Assembly (NCBI GenBank): GCA_964399675.1
Contig: CAYNRK010000001.1
Span: forward strand, 64,424 to 128,423
Length of the DNA stretch: 64,000 nucleotides
Reading direction: 5' to 3'
Source of the DNA: an uncultured Gammaproteobacteria bacterium
GTDB taxonomy: Bacteria > Patescibacteriota > Patescibacteriia > UBA9934 > GWF2-40-263
Part shown: positions 4,492 to 57,391 of the stretch, piece after piece
How positions within the stretch are numbered: position 1 is the stretch's first letter
How the letters are laid out: each line of letters begins with the position of its first letter
The notes under the pieces: generated by a model
Database searches by the model: none
Seen by the model: the letters and a program-made list of their open reading frames with translations, nothing else
What the model was told of the DNA's origin: nothing
Made by a program: the position numbers and the translations under genes

Positions 4492-5220
4492 GTGTTGCAA
4501 GAGTTCATAAACAACTTTTATCTAAATGAAAAAGAAGCCAAAGTTTATTTGGCCACTTTGGAATTAGGCAGAAGCAGAGTCAGCAGAATCGCTAAAAAAG
4601 CAGGTTTAAATCGTATTACTGCCTATGAAGTACTCAAACGACTTACGGAAATGGGAATTGCTCAAAGTGCGATGTACAGCGGCATACAAACCTTTACAGT
4701 CGTGTCGCCGGAGATACTTGTAGAGAAAATGGAAAGCAGGCTCGCGGTTGCAAAGAACGTTTTGCCAGAACTTTCTTTACTCGCCGCGTCAAAAGCGCAT
4801 AAACCCGCGATCATGTTTTACGAAGGTGCAGAAGGTATTCGAAGCATCTATGAAGACTCACTCACCTGCAAAGAAAAAATCATTTTGAATGTAGCGCACC
4901 CACAAAATCTACTCAAAACGATCGGCAAAGATTTTTTTGCGCAATATGTGAAAAAACGAGTGAGACGCAATATCCAAGTGAACGTATTGCTACCTGATAC
5001 TCCAGAAAACAAAAAATTCAAGCGGGAAGTGAAGTCAGCCATGCGGCAAATAAAATTTTTTGATAACAAAAAATATCTATTACCAAACGAGATATTGATT
5101 TATGATAACAGAATCGCACTCCTCTCTTTTTCTGCGCTTATTGGCGTTGTTGTTGAAGACAAAGACATTGCACAATCAATGAAGTCATTGTGGCAAATGG
5201 TTTGGAACCATATTGGTTGA
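4492..5220 (+). CDS. TrmB-family transcriptional regulator
   Basis: N-terminal winged-HTH LNEKEAKVYLATLELG typical of TrmB family; GTG start. Confidence 0.6.
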   Translation: MLQEFINNFYLNEKEAKVYLATLELGRSRVSRIAKKAGLNRITAYEVLKRLTEMGIAQSAMYSGIQTFTVVSPEILVEKMESRLAVAKNVLPELSLLAASKAHKPAIMFYEGAEGIRSIYEDSLTCKEKIILNVAHPQNLLKTIGKDFFAQYVKKRVRRNIQVNVLLPDTPENKKFKREVKSAMRQIKFFDNKKYLLPNEILIYDNRIALLSFSALIGVVVEDKDIAQSMKSLWQMVWNHIG

Positions 5221-5293
5221 CGATTTCCAAAATTCACGGTAAAACAGTATTTTTTTTGGTCTCTGGCTCCTATATGATAAAATTAGAATACCT

Positions 5294-6577
5294 ATGAAAA
5301 AAACCGTAATTGAAAGAAAGCAGGAGAAAATATTGAGCAGGTCAGCGCGTCGTGAGCATGTTCAGGATTTAATTAAAATGACGCCAACTGGAAAGGGGGA
5401 TAATCTTTTAGGAAATCTACTTGATCAACTTTTGTTATTTGCTCATCAGTCCAGGGCTTCGGATATTCATTTTGAACCTATTCGAGAAAAGGGGATTATT
5501 CGAAATCGGATAGATGGTTTTTTACAAGATGAGTTCGAGCTTGATCTATCTTTGCATCACAGATTAATATCTCTTATCAAAGTGCACGGACGTCTTCGTA
5601 CAGACGAGCACCGTGTTGCACAAGATGGGCGTCTTTGGTTTGAAACACCTTCTGGAAATGTTGATGTTAGAATATCTTTGATCCCTGTTGAAGACGGAGA
5701 AAGATGTGTTTTAAGATTGCTTTCAAGTGAATCAAAAAGTTTTGGTCTTTCTTCTTTGGGATTGGTTGATTCAGATCTGGCTCGGATAAAACAATCCATT
5801 GATCAGCCATGGGGAATGATACTGACAACCGGGCCAACTGGTTGTGGAAAGACAACAACAATATATTCCTTATTGCAACTTTTAAATTCAAGGCAGTTTA
5901 ATATTGCCACTGTTGAAAATCCGGTAGAGTATTACATTTCCGGAATAAACCAGAGCCAGGTTGATCTAAACGCAGGATTCTCTTTTGCCGATGGGCTAAG
6001 GGCAATAATGCGACAAGATCCTGATATAATAATGGTTGGAGAGATTCGAGATATTGAAACAGCAAAAATTGCAGTAAATGCAGCCCTTACAGGACACAGG
6101 ATGTTTTCAACGCTTCATACAAACAATGCGTCTGCAGCAATTCCAAGACTTTTGGATCGAGGTGTTGAACCTTTTCTTGTTGCATCAACATTGATTTGCG
6201 CTGTTGGCCAACGTCTCTTACGCAAGGTGTGTTCGGATTGTTGGTCAAGTAAACCGTTTCAAAAAGAAAAAGCAGAAAAGATTTTTACTCAAAGTGCAAT
6301 AAAAACAATGTTTGGGAAACAGCAAACAATCGCGGTTGCTCAAGCGGTTGGATGTCCAAATTGTAACAACACAGGGTACAAGGGAAGGGTTGGGATGTTT
6401 GAGGTGCTAATGGTTTCGCCACAGATTCAAGATTTAATAATTTCACGCGCATCATCTAAACAGATTCAAGATCAAGCGATTAAAGAAGGCATGACTACTA
6501 TGTATGAAGATGCAGTGAGAAAGGTTCTGTCTCTTGAAACTTCAATTGAAGAATTTGTTAGGGTTATGTATATATGA
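5294..6577 (+). CDS. Type II/IV secretion-system ATPase (PilB/GspE family, short form)
   Basis: Walker A GPTGCGKTT, Asp/His boxes, C-terminal tetracysteine CSDCW...GCPNCNNTGYKGR. Confidence 0.85.
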   Translation: MKKTVIERKQEKILSRSARREHVQDLIKMTPTGKGDNLLGNLLDQLLLFAHQSRASDIHFEPIREKGIIRNRIDGFLQDEFELDLSLHHRLISLIKVHGRLRTDEHRVAQDGRLWFETPSGNVDVRISLIPVEDGERCVLRLLSSESKSFGLSSLGLVDSDLARIKQSIDQPWGMILTTGPTGCGKTTTIYSLLQLLNSRQFNIATVENPVEYYISGINQSQVDLNAGFSFADGLRAIMRQDPDIIMVGEIRDIETAKIAVNAALTGHRMFSTLHTNNASAAIPRLLDRGVEPFLVASTLICAVGQRLLRKVCSDCWSSKPFQKEKAEKIFTQSAIKTMFGKQQTIAVAQAVGCPNCNNTGYKGRVGMFEVLMVSPQIQDLIISRASSKQIQDQAIKEGMTTMYEDAVRKVLSLETSIEEFVRVMYI

Positions 6578-33880: not shown

Positions 33881-34132
33881 ATGAGGATTGTTTTTTCAGA
33901 TCATGCTCTGCATCAAATACAAGAACGAAATTTGTCAAAATCGCAAATTAGTCGTGTTGTCGAAAATCCTCAAATTCTTACCAACCAGTCTCGCAATCGC
34001 TTTCGTGCAATGGGGATCATTTCGCGAAAACAAAAGCGTTATGTTCTCATTGTCGTTTACGACATAGTTGGAAATGGTAAAAAGGAAATTGTAACAGCTT
34101 TTGTTTCATCAAAGATAAAAAAATACTTATGA
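33881..34132 (+). CDS. DUF4258-family protein (RelE/BrnT-like toxin fold candidate)
   Basis: MRIVFSDHALHQIQERNLSKSQI... pattern typical of DUF4258. Confidence 0.55.
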   Translation: MRIVFSDHALHQIQERNLSKSQISRVVENPQILTNQSRNRFRAMGIISRKQKRYVLIVVYDIVGNGKKEIVTAFVSSKIKKYL

Positions 34133-34356
34133 GATTCCATTACGACAAAAAAAAGGACGCACTCTATATTCGTTTCGACGAAAGCACTTATGAAGAGAGT
34201 GACGAGGTCGAAGATGGTATTGTATTTGATTACGATGCTAAGAAAAAGTTAGTCGGTATTGAAATACTCGACGCCTCCAAAAAACTCACAGCATCTGTTC
34301 GGACTTCACTCAAAAGGAATGAGCTGCCGATTAGCATTGGGGCAACACCTGTTTAG
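34129..34356 (+). CDS. DUF2283-family protein (cognate partner)
   Basis: YDKKKDALYIRFDE...EVEDGIVFDYDAKKKLVGIEILDASK; 4-bp overlap with upstream gene. Confidence 0.55.
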   Translation: MRFHYDKKKDALYIRFDESTYEESDEVEDGIVFDYDAKKKLVGIEILDASKKLTASVRTSLKRNELPISIGATPV

Positions 34357-36776: not shown

Positions 36777-36851
36777 GGCCCCATCGTCTATCGGTTAGGA
36801 CGCCAGGTTTTCATCCTGGAAAGCGGGGTTCGACTCCCCGTGGGGTCACCA
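36777..36851 (+). tRNA. tRNA-Glu (anticodon UUC)
   Basis: Acceptor GGCCCCA/TGGGGTC, anticodon loop TTTTCAT, T-loop TTCGACT, encoded CCA. Confidence 0.9.
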
Positions 36852-36919
36852 AAAAGAAACTAGTTCGAGTACTCGAGAAGGGTCGCATCGAATTTCAAGA
36901 AGAACTACGAAAGTAGTTT

Positions 36920-36952
36920 CTTTTTGTTGTGGTAAAATACAACAAATGTGAT
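36920..36952 (+). promoter_or_regulatory. C-box-like palindromic operator overlapping the promoter of the HTH gene
   Basis: TTTGTTGT-GGTAAAAT-ACAACAAA inverted repeat immediately upstream of a TATAAT -10. Confidence 0.4.
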
Positions 36953-36971
36953 ATAATTAGGCTAAGCTTAT

Positions 36972-37178
36972 ATGATCAACGATGCAAAAAAACTTGGCGA
37001 GAATCTAAAGAAGATTCGAATGGAGAAAGATATTACTCAATCGAGTATTGCAAGAAATCTTGGAGTTGATCGATCTTTTGTGAGTAATATCGAAAATGGG
37101 AAAACTAATCCTACTCTTTCTACTATTACAAATCTTGCCAAGTCACTAGGGGTTACGACTAGTGAGTTATTGAAATAA
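36972..37178 (+). CDS. XRE-family HTH protein, controller (C) protein-like
   Basis: LKKIRMEKDITQSSIARNLGVDRSFVSNIENGKTNPTLSTITNLAKSLGV = HTH_3 with the conserved GK.NP.L motif of RM controller proteins. Confidence 0.65.
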   Translation: MINDAKKLGENLKKIRMEKDITQSSIARNLGVDRSFVSNIENGKTNPTLSTITNLAKSLGVTTSELLK

Positions 37179-37190
37179 ATCCTGAATCTA

Positions 37191-38180
37191 ATGTCTACGA
37201 TGCTTAACAAAGCAGATATTCTAGAAAATGACCTACGGGAAAAGTATCCCGTTGTTTTGGATTTACTTTTGACTGATCAGACAACCAAAAAGAATATATT
37301 TTGGGCTACAAATGACTATCAACACCTTGGAAAGGGTTATGAATATAGCTCTCCAATATCTCCCAAATTAATTACCAACGGAAACGGTCACGTCATAATG
37401 CCTCGAGCAGAAAAAGCAAAGTCACTTCAACAAATGCGTGTTCGTGGTATGGCTGAAGTATTTACTCCATCGTGGGTTTGCAATGCTCAAAACAACATTA
37501 TTGATAATTATTGGTTTGATACTGATAATCTATTTAATACAGAAATTACCAACAAACATGGAGAAAATTTTTGGAAAACGAATACAAAAAAAATAAGTTT
37601 TCCAAAAGGTAAAACTTGGAAAGAATACATACAAGATACTCGTCTTGAAATTGCATGCGGAGAAGCTCCTTATATCACTAGTCGTTACGACACAACTACA
37701 GGCAATTTTATTCCTGTAAAAAATCGTATTGGAATACTCGACAGAAAACTTCGTATTGTCAATGAACATACGAAAACTTCTAAAGATTGGCTAAAGGCTT
37801 CACAAGAAGCTTTCAAAAATACGTACGCTTATGAATGGCAGGGAGACAGCCTGCTCCTTGCGAGAGAGTCAATGTTATTCACCTTTATTGAAAATTACTT
37901 GGTCAAATTTGGTAAAAACCCCCAATCAAATTCAATTAAAAAATTTGCTGAAATAATATCTTGGAACGTTTGGCAGATGGATGGACTAACAGGCACTATC
38001 CCTAACAGTTGTAATGAACAAAAGCAAACATCCACTAACTTATTTGGTGAAACTGAGATTACAAAATTGAAATGTGTAGGTTGTAAAGAAAATGAGATAA
38101 AAGCACACAGTGGTGCATACTGTCTCATTAAGGATTGGAGAAATAATACACAGGTGCGCTTTATTGATTTATTAAAATAG
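37191..38180 (+). CDS. Hypothetical protein with methyltransferase motif X/I-like segments but no catalytic NPPY
   Basis: AEVFTPSWV (motif X-like) and LEIACGEAPYI (motif I-like, cf. LDPACGSGxFL); no (N/D)PP(Y/F/W); occupies the position of the R gene in C-controlled RM operons. Confidence 0.4.
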   Translation: MSTMLNKADILENDLREKYPVVLDLLLTDQTTKKNIFWATNDYQHLGKGYEYSSPISPKLITNGNGHVIMPRAEKAKSLQQMRVRGMAEVFTPSWVCNAQNNIIDNYWFDTDNLFNTEITNKHGENFWKTNTKKISFPKGKTWKEYIQDTRLEIACGEAPYITSRYDTTTGNFIPVKNRIGILDRKLRIVNEHTKTSKDWLKASQEAFKNTYAYEWQGDSLLLARESMLFTFIENYLVKFGKNPQSNSIKKFAEIISWNVWQMDGLTGTIPNSCNEQKQTSTNLFGETEITKLKCVGCKENEIKAHSGAYCLIKDWRNNTQVRFIDLLK

Positions 38181-38186
38181 CAACAT

Positions 38187-41100
38187 ATGGCAAAACCGGA
38201 AATAATTAATACCTCCGCTCTAGATGAACTTATTTTTGGTCGTGTTGAACCACACATCTATGCTTTTTCTACGGAGACTGTCCCTAACTACTTAAAGGTT
38301 GGCGATACATATCGTCCATTAGAGATGAGATTAGATGAGTGGCGTAAACATTTTCCAAATTTAGAAAAGAGATTCGAAAGAATTGCAAAAGTTGATGACA
38401 AAACATTTTTTAGAGACCATGCTGTTCATTATTTTTTGGAAAATGAAGTCAACAAAGAAAGATTAGAGCAAAATCAGATAAAAAATCTACCATACTACTC
38501 AAATGAGTTTTTCAAAAATGCTAGTACAGAAGATCTAAAAAAAGCTATTGCAGACATAATAAAGTCTTATAAAAACAATGACTATAAATATCAATATTAT
38601 AGTTTTGAAGAAAGTCGGATCCCTCTTACTCACCACTACAGCAGAACTGAAAATTACAACCCTAGACCCAATCAACAAAAAACAATAGATAGCTTTAAGA
38701 AAGCAGTTAAAAATGGGCATACAAATCTTTTGATGTATGCAGTAATGCGCTTTGGAAAATCATTTACGTCAATGTGTTGTGCCGTCAATATGGGCGCAAA
38801 ATTTGTATTGGTAGTCTCAGCGAAGGCTGATGTAAAGGAAGAATGGAAAAAAACAGTTGAAAGCCACATTAAATTTGATGGTTACAGTTTTTTAGATAGC
38901 AATTCACTTTTACAAAACAAGAGTATAATTTCTGACAATCTATCAAGTAATAAAAAAGTAGTTTTATTTCTTACATTACAAGATCTACAAGGTGATGCGA
39001 TTAAATCAAAACATAAAGAAGTTTTTGCTAAGCAGATTGATCTATTATTAGTTGATGAAACACATTTTGGCGCAAGAGCTGCTGAATATGGAAAAGTTTT
39101 AAAAAAACAAGAATTTAGTAAAAAAGAGATAATCAATGAGTTAAAACTAAATGATAGTTCTTTAGACGATTTAGAGGAAACGACGAAAAATCTTAATGCA
39201 AAAGTGCGTATTCACCTATCTGGAACACCGTACAGAATTTTGATGAATAGTGAATTTACAGACGACAATATAATTGCCTTTTACCAATTTTCTGACATTG
39301 CCGATGATCAAGAGAACTGGGACGAAAAAAACCTCAACAAGGATGAAGCGAAAGAATGGGACAATCCATACTATGGGTTTCCACAAATGATTCGCTTTGC
39401 TTTTAACCCAAACGAATCGTCTCGTAAAAAGATGGAAGAGATGAAAAAAAACGGGGTCACATATACTTTTTCAGCATTATTCAAACCAAAATCGATAACA
39501 AAAGATACAGCAAACAGCCTACATAAAAAATTCACTCATGAAAAAGAAATTGTAGATTTACTACATGTAATTGATGGCTCACAAGAAGATGAAAATTTAT
39601 TAAGCTTTCTTGATTACGATAAGATAAAAGAAGGAAAAATGTGCAGGCACATGGTATGTGTTTTGCCTTATCGTGCTTCATGTGATGCTTTAGAGAAGCT
39701 TATCAAAAGTAATAAATTTAAAAATCTGAGTGATTACGAAATTATTAATATTTCTGGTGTTGATAATGAAAATAAATACAAAGACACACAATCTGTTCAA
39801 GCAAAAATCAAAAAATGCGAAAGTAAGGACAAAAAAACAATTACGCTGACAGTTAACAGAATGCTCACAGGTAGCACAGTACCTGAGTGGGATACCATGC
39901 TCTATTTTAAGGACACAGCATCCCCGCAAGAATACGATCAAGCTACATTTCGTCTACAGAATCAATATGTCAAAACATACACTGAGCCAAATGGTGATGT
40001 TATGAAATACAACATGAAGCCACAAACTCTTTTAGTTGATTTTAGTCCAAATCGAATGTTTGAGATGCAGGAGCACAAATCTCAAATATACAATGTAAAT
40101 ACAGAATCAAACGGAAATAGTAAACTAGAAGAAAGGCTAAAAAGGGAACTGGAAATATCTCCTATCGTCGTTCTAAACAACAAAAAAGTAACTCAAATTT
40201 CACCTGCTGACATTTTAGATGCTATTAGAGAATATTTTAGCAGCAGGAGTGTACTAGACGAGGCTACTTCCATTTCAGTAGATTATTCACTCTTGGATAT
40301 AGACATAATCAAGGCTGAAATTGAAAAGCAAGGTAAAATAGGATCACGACAAGGAATAGAGATCAAACCTGCCGATGGTGAAGGAGATGAGCTTGATACA
40401 GGCAACGAACAGCTTGATGACGGCAAAGATAAAGAAAAGGACGAGGCTACTGACAGTACAGAAAATGAAGTGGAAGCAGATTATAGAGGAAAATTTGCAA
40501 TGTATTATGCAAGAATTCTATTTTTTACATTCCTTACAGACTCAAAAATAAAATCCCTTCACGAGATAATCACGCATATTGACAGCAATGAAAATAACCT
40601 ACGAATAGCAGCAAATCTAAGCCTAGAAAAAAATATACTTTCATTATTCCAAGAGCATATTAACCCTTTCGTACTCAGTGAATTAGACTACAAAATCCAC
40701 AACATAAATTCACTAGCAAATGATTTATCTTTAGAACCGGTAGGGCGGGCAAGCAATGCGTTGAAAAAGTTTAGTCGCCTATCCGATTCCGAAATTGTAA
40801 CACCTGAATTTGTCACTGAAAAAATTATTGATTTGTTCCCCAAAAATGCAATTACCAATTCAACAAACATTCTTGATATAGCGTCGAAACAGGGTGAATT
40901 TGTGTATGCTGTTTACAAAAAATTTGGCAAAAGAATAGCAAATAATTTCTTTTCAATCCCAACATCTAAGATCGCGTACGAGTTCACTAGAAAAGTGTAT
41001 AAGTTGCTTGAATTAGATGTAAATAACATTGAAAAAAACTATACTTCCTACGATTTACTTGAGAAAAATGATTTGATCGCAGGAAATAATTTACAAATTA

Positions 41101-42146
41101 ACAATAAAAATATGAAATTCGATGTAATTGTGGGGAATCCTCCATATCAAAAAAGCGATGGTGGAGCACAAGCGAGTGCTAAACCCATTTACAATGATTT
41201 TGTCAATATTGCAAAAAAACTAAATCCGGAATACGTTTCAATAATTATGCCAACACGTTGGTATGCTGGTGGCAAAGGTTTAGATTCTTTCAGAGATGCA
41301 ATGATCAATGATAAACACATAGCCGAACTGCATGATTTTCTTAGACCAGATTTGCTTTTTAGAGACATCAATCTAAGAGGTGGTGTTTGCTATTTTCTTT
41401 GGAGCAAATCATACGATAACACAAAAAGACTTACAAAAGTTTTCACATACAGAAATAGTTTAAAACCTGAGTCACACACCCGAAATCTAAAAACAGAAGA
41501 TTCCGAAATCTTTATTCGACACAATGTAGCCATAAACATATTAAAGAAAGTAAAAAATTATTCAAAATTCAAATCACTTGAAGATTTTATCTCATCCAGA
41601 AAACCCTTTGGATTTGAAGCCAACATAATTAAAAAAGTGAAACTCTTTAGACCAACAGCCAACAAATTAAAAAATCCCATTATCTGTTATGGGAAAGGGA
41701 GGAAAGTTGGTTATTTAGAAAGATCAGAAGTTAAAAAAAATGATGAATGGATTGATAAATATAAAGTGTATACGCCGAGAGCTAACAACATTGGAACGGA
41801 ATTGAATGATGATAATTTGAATGCTTTCATAGGAAACCCAAAAACAATTTGTACAGAATCTTATATCGTTGTTGGTGTTGATTTAGAATTAAATAAAACA
41901 TCTGCTCAAAATATTCGTAAATATTTCAAAACAAAGTTTGCTAGGTTTCAACATAACATAAGAAAAGCTAGTCAAGATGCCACATCAAAGACCTACAAAT
42001 TTGTACCCCTACAAGACTTTACCTCAAAATCAGATATAGACTGGAAAAAATCAATTAATGAAATTGACCAACAACTATATAAAAAATACAAATTAACCAA
42101 AAAAGAAATAGACTTTATTGAAAGTATGATTAAACCAATGAGATAA
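38187..42146 (+). CDS. Fusion protein: T5orf172/GIY-YIG-like N-terminal domain + SF2 helicase/ATPase + N6-adenine DNA methyltransferase (NPPY) + C-terminal putative target-recognition region
   Basis: N-term HIYAFSTETVPNYLKVGDTYRPLEMRLDEW...NEFFKNAS parallels the T5orf172 gene downstream; Walker A AVMRFGKSFT, DExH LLVDETHFG, SGTPYR motif III; MTase motif I-like ILDIASKQGEFV and motif IV VIVGNPPYQ. Confidence 0.7.
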   Translation: MAKPEIINTSALDELIFGRVEPHIYAFSTETVPNYLKVGDTYRPLEMRLDEWRKHFPNLEKRFERIAKVDDKTFFRDHAVHYFLENEVNKERLEQNQIKNLPYYSNEFFKNASTEDLKKAIADIIKSYKNNDYKYQYYSFEESRIPLTHHYSRTENYNPRPNQQKTIDSFKKAVKNGHTNLLMYAVMRFGKSFTSMCCAVNMGAKFVLVVSAKADVKEEWKKTVESHIKFDGYSFLDSNSLLQNKSIISDNLSSNKKVVLFLTLQDLQGDAIKSKHKEVFAKQIDLLLVDETHFGARAAEYGKVLKKQEFSKKEIINELKLNDSSLDDLEETTKNLNAKVRIHLSGTPYRILMNSEFTDDNIIAFYQFSDIADDQENWDEKNLNKDEAKEWDNPYYGFPQMIRFAFNPNESSRKKMEEMKKNGVTYTFSALFKPKSITKDTANSLHKKFTHEKEIVDLLHVIDGSQEDENLLSFLDYDKIKEGKMCRHMVCVLPYRASCDALEKLIKSNKFKNLSDYEIINISGVDNENKYKDTQSVQAKIKKCESKDKKTITLTVNRMLTGSTVPEWDTMLYFKDTASPQEYDQATFRLQNQYVKTYTEPNGDVMKYNMKPQTLLVDFSPNRMFEMQEHKSQIYNVNTESNGNSKLEERLKRELEISPIVVLNNKKVTQISPADILDAIREYFSSRSVLDEATSISVDYSLLDIDIIKAEIEKQGKIGSRQGIEIKPADGEGDELDTGNEQLDDGKDKEKDEATDSTENEVEADYRGKFAMYYARILFFTFLTDSKIKSLHEIITHIDSNENNLRIAANLSLEKNILSLFQEHINPFVLSELDYKIHNINSLANDLSLEPVGRASNALKKFSRLSDSEIVTPEFVTEKIIDLFPKNAITNSTNILDIASKQGEFVYAVYKKFGKRIANNFFSIPTSKIAYEFTRKVYKLLELDVNNIEKNYTSYDLLEKNDLIAGNNLQINNKNMKFDVIVGNPPYQKSDGGAQASAKPIYNDFVNIAKKLNPEYVSIIMPTRWYAGGKGLDSFRDAMINDKHIAELHDFLRPDLLFRDINLRGGVCYFLWSKSYDNTKRLTKVFTYRNSLKPESHTRNLKTEDSEIFIRHNVAINILKKVKNYSKFKSLEDFISSRKPFGFEANIIKKVKLFRPTANKLKNPIICYGKGRKVGYLERSEVKKNDEWIDKYKVYTPRANNIGTELNDDNLNAFIGNPKTICTESYIVVGVDLELNKTSAQNIRKYFKTKFARFQHNIRKASQDATSKTYKFVPLQDFTSKSDIDWKKSINEIDQQLYKKYKLTKKEIDFIESMIKPMR

Positions 42147-42152
42147 CTATTT

Positions 42153-42749
42153 ATGAACGAAATAATTTATATTCTCATTAACGAATCAATGCCTGGGTAT
42201 GTGAAAATTGGGAGGACAACAAATTTAGAGCAAAGAATTCGTTCACTAGACACAACAAGTGTTCCACTTCCTTTTGAATGTTTTTATGCTTGCACTGTGC
42301 AAGATGCAGATTTTGTTGAAAAGCAACTTCATGATGCATTTTTAGACCATCGAATTCGTTCAAGTAGAGAATTTTTTGAAATATCACCAGAGCGCGTTGT
42401 GTCAGCTTTAAAGATTGCTGAGCTGGAAGATGTTACTCCAGGAAAGGATTATGTTGAATCAGAAGAAGATCAACAAGCATTGAATCAAGCCAGAAAGAGG
42501 CGCGCTGTTTTTAATTTTAAAATGGCGCAGATTCCTGTTGGTGCAGAACTTGTTTTCGTAAATGATGAAAATATAAAAGCAAAGGTTATTGACAATCGTT
42601 TAATTGAAATAAATGGGGAAGTCACAAGCCCTTCTGCTTCTGCTCAAAAATTATTGGGATATTCATATCAGGTTCAAGGAACAATTTACTGGATGTATGA
42701 AGGTGAGACTCTTGATGAGAGACGTCGTAGAATTGAATCTGAGGACTAA
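42153..42749 (+). CDS. T5orf172 (GIY-YIG superfamily) domain protein with DUF4357-like C-terminus
   Basis: IIYILINESMPGYVKIGRTTNLEQRIRSL...FECFYACTV...SREFFEISPERVVSAL then GAELVF...YSYQVQGTIYWMYEGETL. Confidence 0.6.
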   Translation: MNEIIYILINESMPGYVKIGRTTNLEQRIRSLDTTSVPLPFECFYACTVQDADFVEKQLHDAFLDHRIRSSREFFEISPERVVSALKIAELEDVTPGKDYVESEEDQQALNQARKRRAVFNFKMAQIPVGAELVFVNDENIKAKVIDNRLIEINGEVTSPSASAQKLLGYSYQVQGTIYWMYEGETLDERRRRIESED

Positions 42750-42768
42750 TTTATTATTACTTTGCACT

Positions 42769-42805
42769 TCAAACTACCACCGACAGGGCCGGTGGTAGTT
42801 TGATT
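42769..42805 (+). terminator. Hairpin terminator after the defence-like operon
   Basis: CAAACTACCACCG-ACAGGGC-CGGTGGTAGTTTG followed by ATTCTTTTGTT. Confidence 0.45.
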
Positions 42806-43157
42806 CTTTTGTTCTGCAAAACCAACCCATTGATAATGCACTCAAGCACCGACCTCTGTTCCAGCACAGTCCCTTCTTTCAAAACAAACTTGGCATAATC
42901 TTTTAAATCGATAGGTTCAATTGAATCGGCCTTTCTTATTCCTAAGAACATTGCTTGTAACTTTTTAAACTTCTGTATTTCTAGGTTGAGTTTAGCGGTA
43001 AGCTTTACTTGATCTAGTTTTAATGTGTCGATCATCTCAAGCAGCGCCTCGATGAGATCTGTCTCATTAATTGCGGGATTTTTACATTTGTAATTAAAAT
43101 TGTCAAACACCCTGTCTTATGCTACTAATAGTGCGCAACTTCAGAGGGAGAGAGACA

Positions 43158-43910
43158 ATGCAAAGCAAGAACTTTTGTGGTTTCGGTTGGATGCTCGTTG
43201 CCTTGGCCTTGTCCTTTGCCACGCTTTCGGGTTGTCGCTGCGACAGTGATCCGGCAGAGCCTGGTCCGGGTCAAGTGACCCTTGATGGCCAACTGTTCGA
43301 TGTCGACTGGTCGGACGGAGACAGCTTCTCGTGGAAGGTGCCAGGAGAGAAGAAAAAGCGCGGGTCTCGCTTGATGGGGTTCAACACGCTCGAGGACTAC
43401 GGGCCCGTCCACCGGTGGGGTTCCTGGACAGCTGAGGAGTTGTACGACATCGCCAAGGAAGCCGGTCGTTTTGCTGCCTCTCGTGGCTGGAACTGTAGGA
43501 AGACGGGGCGCAGCGGCGGTTACGGGCGAGAAGGTATCCGTTGCCCAGACTTGCCTCGAGAGATGATCAAGAGGGGGCTCGCTCACGCGTATTCGATGGA
43601 TGGACCTTCTGATCCGGCACTGCTGGACTTGCAAAAGAAGGCGCAGGCCGAGGGTCAGGGCATGTGGAAGAATGGAATTCCCGAGGCAATCGTCACCAGT
43701 CTGCACAGCCTCGACGAAAAATCGGGAAAGAAGTCTACGTACGATCGCGTCGTCGACGTAGCCACAGGTCACGCAACACCCGTTACCCACACTGAGACGT
43801 ATAAGCCGTGCCAGGGGGTCTGTAGGCGTGGTAGCTGCATGCAGTACATCCCATACCCACAGAGGTATGGAAAAGACCGGCTGCGGTGTGACAAACAAAG
43901 CGGAGGCTGA
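43158..43910 (+). CDS. Secreted thermonuclease (SNase/micrococcal-nuclease-like) lipoprotein, GC-rich islet
   Basis: Lipobox ATLSGC; DVDWSDGDSF, RLMGFNTLE, GQGMWKNG parallel SNase catalytic motifs (DGDT / RLxGIDxPE / GLW); GC ~60%. Confidence 0.55.
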   Translation: MQSKNFCGFGWMLVALALSFATLSGCRCDSDPAEPGPGQVTLDGQLFDVDWSDGDSFSWKVPGEKKKRGSRLMGFNTLEDYGPVHRWGSWTAEELYDIAKEAGRFAASRGWNCRKTGRSGGYGREGIRCPDLPREMIKRGLAHAYSMDGPSDPALLDLQKKAQAEGQGMWKNGIPEAIVTSLHSLDEKSGKKSTYDRVVDVATGHATPVTHTETYKPCQGVCRRGSCMQYIPYPQRYGKDRLRCDKQSGG

Positions 43911-57271: not shown

Positions 57272-57347
57272 GGGCCTGTGGAGGTAATCGGTAACCTCGA
57301 CTAAGTTGACGCTAGTAGCTGCCGGTTCGAATCCGGTCGGGTCCACC
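57272..57347 (+). tRNA. Atypical tRNA-like gene (anticodon UGA, C37), copy 2
   Basis: GGGCCTG-TG-GAGG-TAATCGGTAA-CCTC-G-ACTAA-GTTGACG-CTAGT-AGCT-GCCGG-TTCGAAT-CCGGT-CGGGTCC-A-CCA; ~85% identical to 28239-28314 rc. Confidence 0.55.
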
Positions 57348-57391
57348 ACGTAAAGCCAGCTAAGCTGGCCACGTGGTAAACCAATGGCCCG

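Follow-up and report, generated by a model that had tools for sequence, protein, structure and literature searches.

The DNA analysed here is a 64,000-nt stretch (the window; positions 64,424 to 128,423 of contig CAYNRK010000001.1, assembly GCA_964399675.1, from an uncultured bacterium) in which four closely packed genes lie directly downstream of a tRNA-Glu gene. A first-pass annotation, made from the sequence without database searches, had taken them together as a candidate novel restriction-modification (RM) or defence system. We show that the locus is a variant of a known RM kind and not a new defence system, and that its conserved unit consists of three of the four genes, encoding a controller-type helix-turn-helix (HTH) protein, a protein of 329 aa that we call ORF329 (from open reading frame, ORF), and a 1319-aa protein, the big protein, in which a nuclease, a motor and a methyltransferase (MTase) are fused. 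With a probability of roughly 0.7, we read the locus as a horizontally acquired, controller-regulated, ATP-dependent RM system that is Type ISP-like, with ORF329 as a subunit and the fourth gene (gene 4) as a separate element.

The big protein is encoded on the plus strand at positions 38187-42146, and is recognized by the PADLOC model REase_MTase_IIG and by the Pfam families ResIII (residues 157-307, 1.4e-10) and Eco57I (residues 919-1053, 6.9e-23). The Pfam matches and a map of the motifs confirm the order in which its parts had been read from the sequence, being a T5orf172/GIY-YIG nuclease, a superfamily 2 (SF2) motor, a gamma-class MTase with an NPPY motif, and a variable C-terminal target recognition domain (TRD). 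The nuclease domain (residues 20-125; 38244-38561, plus strand), delimited by PF10544 and by invariant columns of the family alignment, does not show up in a Pfam scan of the entire protein, which gives no Mrr match either. When the N-terminus is searched in isolation, PF10544 matches with 28.4 bits (gathering cutoff 20; E 2.5e-6) over residues 23-123, corresponding to profile positions 2-99 of 101, and the same holds for the isolated N-termini of 8 out of 12 family members. The proposal that the nuclease is of the T5orf172/GIY-YIG type instead of Mrr is thus borne out. Residues Y25, Y35, K37, G39, R48, H81 and E107 of this domain are invariant across the family, and the conserved GIY-type Tyr, YIG-type Tyr/Gly, Arg and Glu residues are presumably catalytic. 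[quoted passage not shown]

The nuclease is followed by an SF2 ATPase/translocase of the ResIII type with a DExH motif (residues 157-720; 38655-40346, plus strand). Its motifs are GKS at residue 190, DETH at 290, SGTP at 345 and QATFRLQ at 585, and conservation is 0.82-0.95. The residues of the nuclease, Walker A, DExH and NPPY motifs are invariant across phyla. A structure model of residues 120-1319 made with AlphaFold2 reached a predicted local distance difference test score (pLDDT) of only 48, and was not used for a fold search.

The MTase region of the big protein consists of two parts that differ in character. The first, which we denote N' (residues 865-960; 40779-41066, plus strand), was delimited by the Eco57I profile alignment and invariant columns, and contains the sequences SEIVTPEFV (motif X'), ILDIASKQGEF (motif I') and FFSIPTS (motif II'), the last of which lacks an acidic residue. 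The canonical motif I for binding S-adenosylmethionine (AdoMet), D/E-P-x-C/G-G-x-G, and the acidic residue of motif II are therefore not found in the big protein; an invariant lysine, Lys901, occupies the place in motif I' where the first glycine normally sits. The same non-canonical motif I' is present in two relatives discussed below, a 530-aa protein (locus L041) and a 1120-aa protein (locus L045). The second part, the catalytic half or C-half, extends from NPPY (motif IV, residue 984) to motif VIII, and is followed by the variable TRD (residues ~1080-1280) and a conserved C-terminal helix; together they occupy positions 41109-42143 of the plus strand and are matched by PADLOC PDLC03375 on residues 969-1318. 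The order of motifs is X-I-II-III-IV...VIII-TRD and the Eco57I family matched is PF07669, whose profile (positions 1-166) runs contiguously from residue 919, out of N' and into the NPPY lobe.

The two parts also differ in conservation, which is 0.8-0.95 at residues 1-960 and 0.40-0.60 at residues 960-1280. Among 18 loci, the C-half is 29-73% identical to that of the window, compared with 75-80% for the helicase, and the distances between the ORF329 proteins of these loci correlate with those of the nuclease (rho 0.86) and the helicase (rho 0.87), but not with those of the C-half (rho 0.03). As judged from these comparisons, the catalytic/TRD module is swapped independently on a constant chassis, which implies that several specificities exist within the family. 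TRDs have likewise been swapped between LlaGI and LlaBIII (PMC3553950).

ORF329 (37191-38180, plus strand) matches the PADLOC MTase_II model PDLC03390 over its full length (5.9e-113) and no Pfam family, and a search of the PDB sequences with it gave no match. It contains motif X (AEVFTPSW), motif I (LEIACGE and GNF, separated by a 12-aa insert), motif II (YAYEW), motif III (VWQMDG) and a C-terminal Cys3-His-Cys cluster. The segments AEVFTPSW.CN, LE..CGEAPY..SRYD, YA.EWQGD and SWN.WQMDG, the Cys/His cluster and the residue Glu215 are invariant in the family alignment, from which motif IV, (D/N/S)PP(Y/F/W), is absent; a TRD is lacking as well. This agrees with the first-pass annotation, which had described ORF329 as MTase-like with motifs X and I but without a catalytic motif, and which is confirmed both by the family alignment and by an alignment with the first gene product (229 aa) of L041, a relative in which the modules are split over three genes. 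The 229-aa protein aligns to ORF329 with an E-value of 3e-8 and has canonical motifs at the corresponding places: GEVFT opposite AEVFTP in motif X, LEPACGDGNFL opposite the interrupted LEIACGE...GNF in motif I, YGIEL opposite YAYEW in motif II, and ILWGDAL opposite VWQMDGL in motif III.

An exhaustive profile search with ORF329 yielded 2238 clusters. Among these are complete MTases (650-717 aa) whose ORF329-like half continues without a break into MKFDFVIGNPPYQ, followed by a TRD and the C-terminal helix, and the end of ORF329 coincides exactly with the start of motif IV in such fused relatives. For instance, residues 1-319 of P0378 (669 aa) align to ORF329 (43% identity, 8e-95) and residues 323-669 align to residues 974-1319 of the big protein (36% identity, 7e-57), so that the two matches are colinear and abutting; P0378 is covered by two separate PADLOC MTase_II models. 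In another protein, P0424, the ORF329-like half is fused to a helicase. The complete MTases, the colinear matches of P0378 and the canonical motifs of the 229-aa protein all identify ORF329, at the level of sequence, as the detached N-terminal, AdoMet-lobe half of a gamma-class MTase, comprising motifs X, I, II and III and a putative Zn ribbon. A paralogous relation between ORF329 and the MTase region within the big protein was considered too and rejected, as hhalign gave no significant result. Proteins resembling ORF329 are listed in databases as complete "Type II methyltransferases" or as "restriction endonuclease subunit M", a likely mis-annotation that is corrected here.

The conservation of the locus was analysed in 34 related loci from named genomes (L001-L034). 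In all 33 loci for which upstream DNA is available, the big gene is immediately preceded by a gene for ORF329, and an HTH gene is present in 23 of the 34. The same pairing of ORF329 with the big protein is found in Draconibacterium orientale, in a distant variant, and on a contig carrying a protein that NCBI assigns to Hypnocyclicus thermotrophus. The constant adjacency, and the co-evolution of ORF329 with the motor, suggest that ORF329 is a probable obligate partner of the big protein. Gene 4 has no homologue in any of the 34 loci, and hence the four-gene cassette that had been supposed is conserved in its first three genes, which form the conserved unit, and not in its last.

The first gene of the operon (36972-37178, plus strand) encodes a 68-aa protein of the XRE/HTH_3, C-protein-like controller type, as indicated by matches to Pfam HTH_3 (1.6e-16) and to the PADLOC model for RM Control_protein (8.6e-15). 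A repeat search revealed a perfect 8-bp inverted repeat, TTTGTTGT-N8-ACAACAAA, at positions 36923-36946, over the -35 region of the HTH promoter. Abutting this palindrome is an extended -10 element that can be read from the sequence, TGaTATAAT (for TGnTATAAT; 36949-36957, plus strand), located 14 nt before the ATG of the HTH gene; the transcript would therefore have a very short leader or none. Inspection of the sequence showed no good -35 hexamer at 17 nt from TGaTATAAT. The element probably acts as the promoter of the HTH gene, and the palindrome is predicted to work as a C-box operator. The earlier description of a controller-type HTH gene with an operator-like palindrome at its promoter therefore holds.

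By tblastn, a homologue of the HTH protein of the window was found in none of the 34 related loci. Its position is held in 23 of them by a non-orthologous, conserved HTH_3 gene (MNRIKEVLEEKGIKQ..., MNRIKE-type), and in the same 23 cassettes a palindrome, TATCT-N9-AGATA (e.g. TTATCTTGAAAAACGAGATA), is conserved ~60-80 nt upstream of that gene. It differs from the palindrome of the window but occupies the same place, and is a candidate operator of the family. Since an HTH_3 gene and an upstream palindrome are present in these loci as well as in the window, a controller together with a predicted operator can be considered a feature of the family.

Based on these results, the system may work as follows. 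By analogy with characterized enzymes, the variable TRD of the big protein would read the DNA and the NPPY lobe would N6-methylate adenine in the sites of the host. On unmodified DNA, the SF2 motor would translocate and the N-terminal T5orf172/GIY-YIG domain would cut, as in LlaGI and LlaBIII and in Type I and Type III systems. ORF329 is envisaged as an obligate subunit that would dock on the big protein and would most likely supply or complete AdoMet-dependent methylation; with such a role, expression would follow the classic order of controller, "M" and finally "R". Through the palindrome over the -35 region, the HTH protein probably regulates its own operon, and gene 4 would be a separate, promoter-less accessory that is co-transcribed without being part of the core.

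The Type ISP enzymes LlaGI and LlaBIII are the obvious reference for this proposal. They share with the big protein the arrangement of nuclease, SF2 motor, gamma-class N6-adenine MTase and TRD in a single polypeptide. Type ISP enzymes are further characterized by ATP-driven translocation, cleavage upon collision and methylation of one strand. However, their nuclease is an Mrr-type PD-(D/E)xK domain instead of a T5orf172/GIY-YIG domain, and the system of the window has in addition a probably obligate half-MTase subunit, a controller gene and a non-canonical motif I in the MTase. The likeness to Type ISP that had been noted from the sequence thus stands for the order of the domains, but it extends neither to the nuclease nor to detectable sequence homology. 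If the proposal is correct, the family would stand beside the Mrr-based Type ISP systems as their GIY-YIG counterpart and would provide a natural test of whether cleavage upon collision of translocating enzymes depends on the nuclease fold.

Three other kinds of system resemble the locus in part. The DnmA(YeeA)-YeeB-YeeC cluster, compared here by its activities, combines the same three activities in one operon, namely a gamma-class N6-adenine MTase with a TRD, an SF2 helicase and a T5orf172 nuclease. These reside there in three separate proteins and the MTase is complete and MmeI-like, whereas in the window a single protein contains nuclease, motor and MTase, the last of these belongs to the Eco57I family, and there is an extra half-MTase. 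Morgan et al. predicted modification of one strand, with a separate motor and nuclease, for clusters of the DnmA-YeeB-YeeC kind (PMC2731913; PMC9973331). Type IIG systems of the Eco57I type have in common with the locus an Eco57I-family NPPY MTase fused to a nuclease, and a second "M" gene. Classical Type IIG enzymes cleave at a fixed distance and are not known to have a motor that depends on nucleoside triphosphates. The big protein, in contrast, has a complete SF2 ATPase inserted (GKS, DETH, SGTP and QxxFR are invariant), and its "M" gene lacks the catalytic half. Finally, naturally split DNA MTases exist, such as M.AquI alpha/beta, which are C5-cytosine MTases split near the C-terminus. They likewise distribute an MTase fold over two polypeptides, but in the window the enzyme is a gamma-class N6-adenine MTase that is divided between motifs III and IV, and there is a second, non-canonical N-terminal half.

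It should be noted that several observations weigh against the reading of the locus as a Type ISP-like RM system. No homology to LlaGI or LlaBIII, or to any PDB chain, was detected at E<=1 with either phmmer or a family profile, in a PDB sequence set that includes the LlaBIII entry 4xqk; consequently, the Type ISP mechanism applies only by analogy. The contiguous match to the Eco57I profile means that the big protein may methylate without ORF329. The operator of the window is a single palindrome, as opposed to the paired C-boxes typical of characterized C-proteins. A literature search revealed passing mentions only, and no experimentally characterized member of the family. Finally, the three-gene DnmA-YeeB-YeeC cluster did not protect Bacillus subtilis against phages (PMC9973331).

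The second of these observations bears on the role of ORF329, and so does the way in which the modules are joined in relatives. With N for the ORF329-like half, C for the catalytic half with the TRD, Nuc for the nuclease and Hel for the motor, we found four arrangements. In the window (arrangement A), N is a protein of its own and the big protein is Nuc-Hel-N'-C. In L045 (B), an N-C fusion is accompanied by a Nuc-Hel-N' protein of 1120 aa without NPPY. In L044 (C), a first protein consists of N, Hel and motif X', a second (455 aa) extends from motif I' through C, and a 432-aa protein follows. In L041 (D), N (229 aa), N'-C (530 aa) and Nuc-Hel (840 aa) are encoded separately. The third gene of L044, a locus without a T5orf172 domain, lies after the MTase gene at positions 4921-6216 of that locus, encodes at least 432 aa and has no family match; its product may be a replacement effector or nuclease. 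These four joinings, and the fusion of an ORF329-like half to a helicase in P0424, argue for a physical association of the parts, and we read them as evidence that N, N' and C may assemble into one complex. Five modules joined in at least four ways would also represent a concrete and cheap route to the coupling of methylation and restriction.

A possible split, three-lobed MTase is to us the most interesting aspect of this system. We tentatively propose, while regarding it as rather doubtful, that the NPPY/TRD lobe is tethered via N', a degenerate pseudo-AdoMet lobe that is probably unable to bind AdoMet, that the only AdoMet-competent lobe is ORF329, acting in trans, and that the choice of the N-lobe decides between methylation and restriction. 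If true, such a switch between self-protection and restriction by exchange of an N-lobe subunit would be undescribed for any RM type.

A different division of labour is possible, if on the unlikely side, and is the alternative that survives best. The big protein would then be self-sufficient, its own N' and C-half constituting an active MTase, and ORF329 would be an AdoMet-binding regulator or adaptor that, for example, licenses the motor or nuclease, or senses the depletion of AdoMet by phage SAM-degrading (that is, AdoMet-degrading) enzymes. The continuity of the Eco57I profile over N' and the C-half is what one would expect of a self-sufficient enzyme, and so is the strong constraint on N', which is invariant. 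An adaptor function, in turn, is consistent with the co-evolution of ORF329 with the nuclease and helicase and not with the C-half, and with the helicase fusion in P0424. However, motif I' has a lysine instead of its first glycine and motif II' lacks an acidic residue, whereas ORF329 keeps Glu215, which argues against this division of labour. Moreover, arrangement B joins the ORF329-like half to the C-half as a complete MTase and leaves N' alone on the helicase protein.

Returning to the reading of the locus as an active, Type ISP-like RM system, we find it quite improbable that it is instead a relic that does not restrict, or an "orphan" methylase module with an epigenetic role, and no longer serves in defence. 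This has been proposed for the DnmA-YeeB-YeeC cluster of B. subtilis, which has the same three activities and showed neither restriction nor phage protection (PMC9973331). In the locus described here, however, all ORFs are intact, the key residues of the nuclease, the Walker A, DExH and NPPY motifs have been kept across phyla, the TRD module is actively diversified, and relatives occur in defence-island contexts, for instance beside McrBC. In addition, Vibrio homologues of DnmA/YeeB are reported to affect phage sensitivity (PMC9973331).

Gene 4 (42153-42749, plus strand; 198 aa) encodes a T5orf172 protein (Pfam T5orf172, 1.8e-17, 64.1 bits). It matches the PADLOC model PDC-S57 (PDLC05041), a single-gene candidate, with an E-value of 5.8e-74 over residues 2-196 (profile positions 5-208 of 212). 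The DUF4357-like part that had been assigned to it is not supported, as no Pfam family matches its C-terminal half (residues 96-198) at E<=10, and no DUF4357 match is obtained with the whole protein at E<=0.1. The N-terminus of the big protein had been said to align with gene 4 motif by motif. Both are indeed T5orf172 domains, but the alignment is supported for ~27 residues (BLASTP E 8e-4; hhalign E 0.0016) and not for the rest; with only this 27-residue segment to go by, we rejected the idea that the two are direct or close paralogues.

The gene-4 family is large, with ~1900 matches at 80-89% identity, mostly from Patescibacteria and named "GIY-YIG nuclease family protein". Identity stays in this range across distant phyla. 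Its members (loci L039, L041, L042 and L046-L125) usually trail unrelated RM operons, of Type I, Type III, Type IIG, split-type and helicase-type systems, at gaps of 3-13 nt. For example, a Type III system (L039), a pair consisting of a Type IIG enzyme and an M.Eco57I-like protein (L042), and the split relative L041 are each followed by such a gene at a distance of 7-13 nt. Their neighbourhood was also sampled in metagenome loci, 49 of which extend far enough upstream. A co-directional ORF lies upstream in 34 of these, six of which are near-duplicate contigs, and in 24 of the 34 this ORF overlaps gene 4 or ends at most 12 nt from it. About two-thirds of the 30 non-redundant upstream proteins are parts of RM systems, comprising 10 ResIII/HsdR/Res, 3 HsdS, 3 N6_Mtase, 2 N6_N4_Mtase and 2 Eco57I proteins. 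Gene 4 is therefore not a core component, as it is absent from all 34 related loci and its homologues trail diverse RM operons. The PDC-S57 family looks like a promoter-less mobile cassette or an accessory nuclease that rides on RM systems, and gene 4 suggests the existence of a generic mobile add-on to them.

These results leave very little room for the view that all four genes constitute one novel defence system with gene 4 as an integral effector of the fusion enzyme: gene 4 does start 6 nt after the big gene and ends at the same terminator, and the split relative L041 also has a homologue directly downstream, but none of the 34 related loci has one, the genes found downstream there vary, homologues with 80-89% identity follow Type III, IIG and I genes, and PADLOC itself treats PDC-S57 as a single gene.

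The family to which the conserved unit belongs is catalogued but unstudied. The PADLOC model PDLC03626 (REase_MTase_IIG) matches residues 6-1318 of the big protein over profile positions 6-1359 of 1359 with 1436.5 bits, and the PADLOC Type IIG and MTase_II models are derived from REBASE. We found more than 4500 homologues of the big protein, ~72% identical across Bacteroidota, Sulfurovum and a metagenome-assembled genome (MAG) of Woesearchaeota, and the NCBI name of these proteins is either [quoted passage not shown] or "restriction endonuclease"; for ORF329 there are more than 8000 homologues, some of them named "restriction endonuclease subunit M". The family as a whole, with near-identical homologues in the thousands, spans Bacteroidota, Campylobacterota, Fusobacteriota, Patescibacteria and archaeal MAGs, and NCBIfam has no model for the big protein, ORF329 or gene 4. 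Fusions of this kind were already mentioned as uncharacterized in papers of 2009 and 2012 (PMC2731913; PMC3553950), the latter of which, on Type ISP enzymes, refers to relatives that use GIY-YIG nucleases (PMC3553950). The suggestion that the architecture is novel thus fails with respect to its cataloguing, since the family is routinely annotated as Type IIG, with ORF329 as MTase_II, yet it retains some force in that we found no characterized member. What the pipelines label "Type IIG" or "Eco57I methylase domain protein" is an abundant family.

Two relatives outside the sample of 34 have distinctive surroundings. In Draconibacterium orientale (L126, 469-12015), the pair of ORF329-like gene and big gene is located in a defence island right after McrBC and a KAP-family NTPase gene. 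In the distant variant (L129, 2511-3125; L130, 1120-1734), the ORF329-like gene is preceded, at a distance of 12 nt, by a gene for a 204-aa tyrosine recombinase. We considered whether L129 and L130 have TRD cassettes in reserve or undergo shuffling by the recombinase, and rejected this because neither homology nor repeats that might allow phase variation were found.

Regarding the setting in the window, the ORF list and ARAGORN confirm the genes and coordinates that had been read from the sequence. The tRNA-Glu gene (TTC anticodon) occupies positions 36777-36851 of the plus strand, and a low-GC island starts directly 3' of it. The four co-directional ORFs are separated by 12, 6 and 6 nt, and the transcription unit is closed by an intrinsic-terminator-like hairpin with a 14-bp stem and a T-rich tail (42769-42803, plus strand), detected in a promoter/terminator scan. 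This block has the lowest GC content in the window (~33%, compared with a baseline of 39-42%). No tRNA-derived direct repeat that could represent an att site was found at the far end of the island. The identical locus is present on several metagenomic contigs.

A 19-nt inverted repeat begins in the last bases of the tRNA-Glu gene (36847-36865 and 36911-36929; arms 89% complementary and 45 nt apart) and encloses a perfect 12-bp palindrome, TCGAGTACTCGA (36865-36876), as well as a small hairpin with a run of T residues behind it. This structure could represent the terminator of the tRNA gene or an insertion scar. At the right edge of the island, a low-GC ORF of 113 aa on the minus strand (42769-43110) overlaps the terminator hairpin; it was considered as a remnant of a serine recombinase, an idea that we dropped as it showed no similarity and no Pfam or PHROG match. 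Over its full length (1-64000), the window is a mosaic in base composition, with sharp patches of 50-60% GC at ~8-10 kb, 14-20 kb, 43-44.5 kb and 46-48 kb standing out from the baseline, and these patches hold long overlapping antisense ORFs (e.g. 43119-43910 on the plus strand with 43125-43898 on the minus strand). Two tRNA-Ser(TGA) genes lie on opposite strands ~29 kb apart (28240-28315, minus; 57272-57348, plus). Just upstream of recQ, a DUF4258/DUF2283 gene pair (33881-34356), in which the stop codon of one gene overlaps the start codon of the other, looks like a toxin-antitoxin module.

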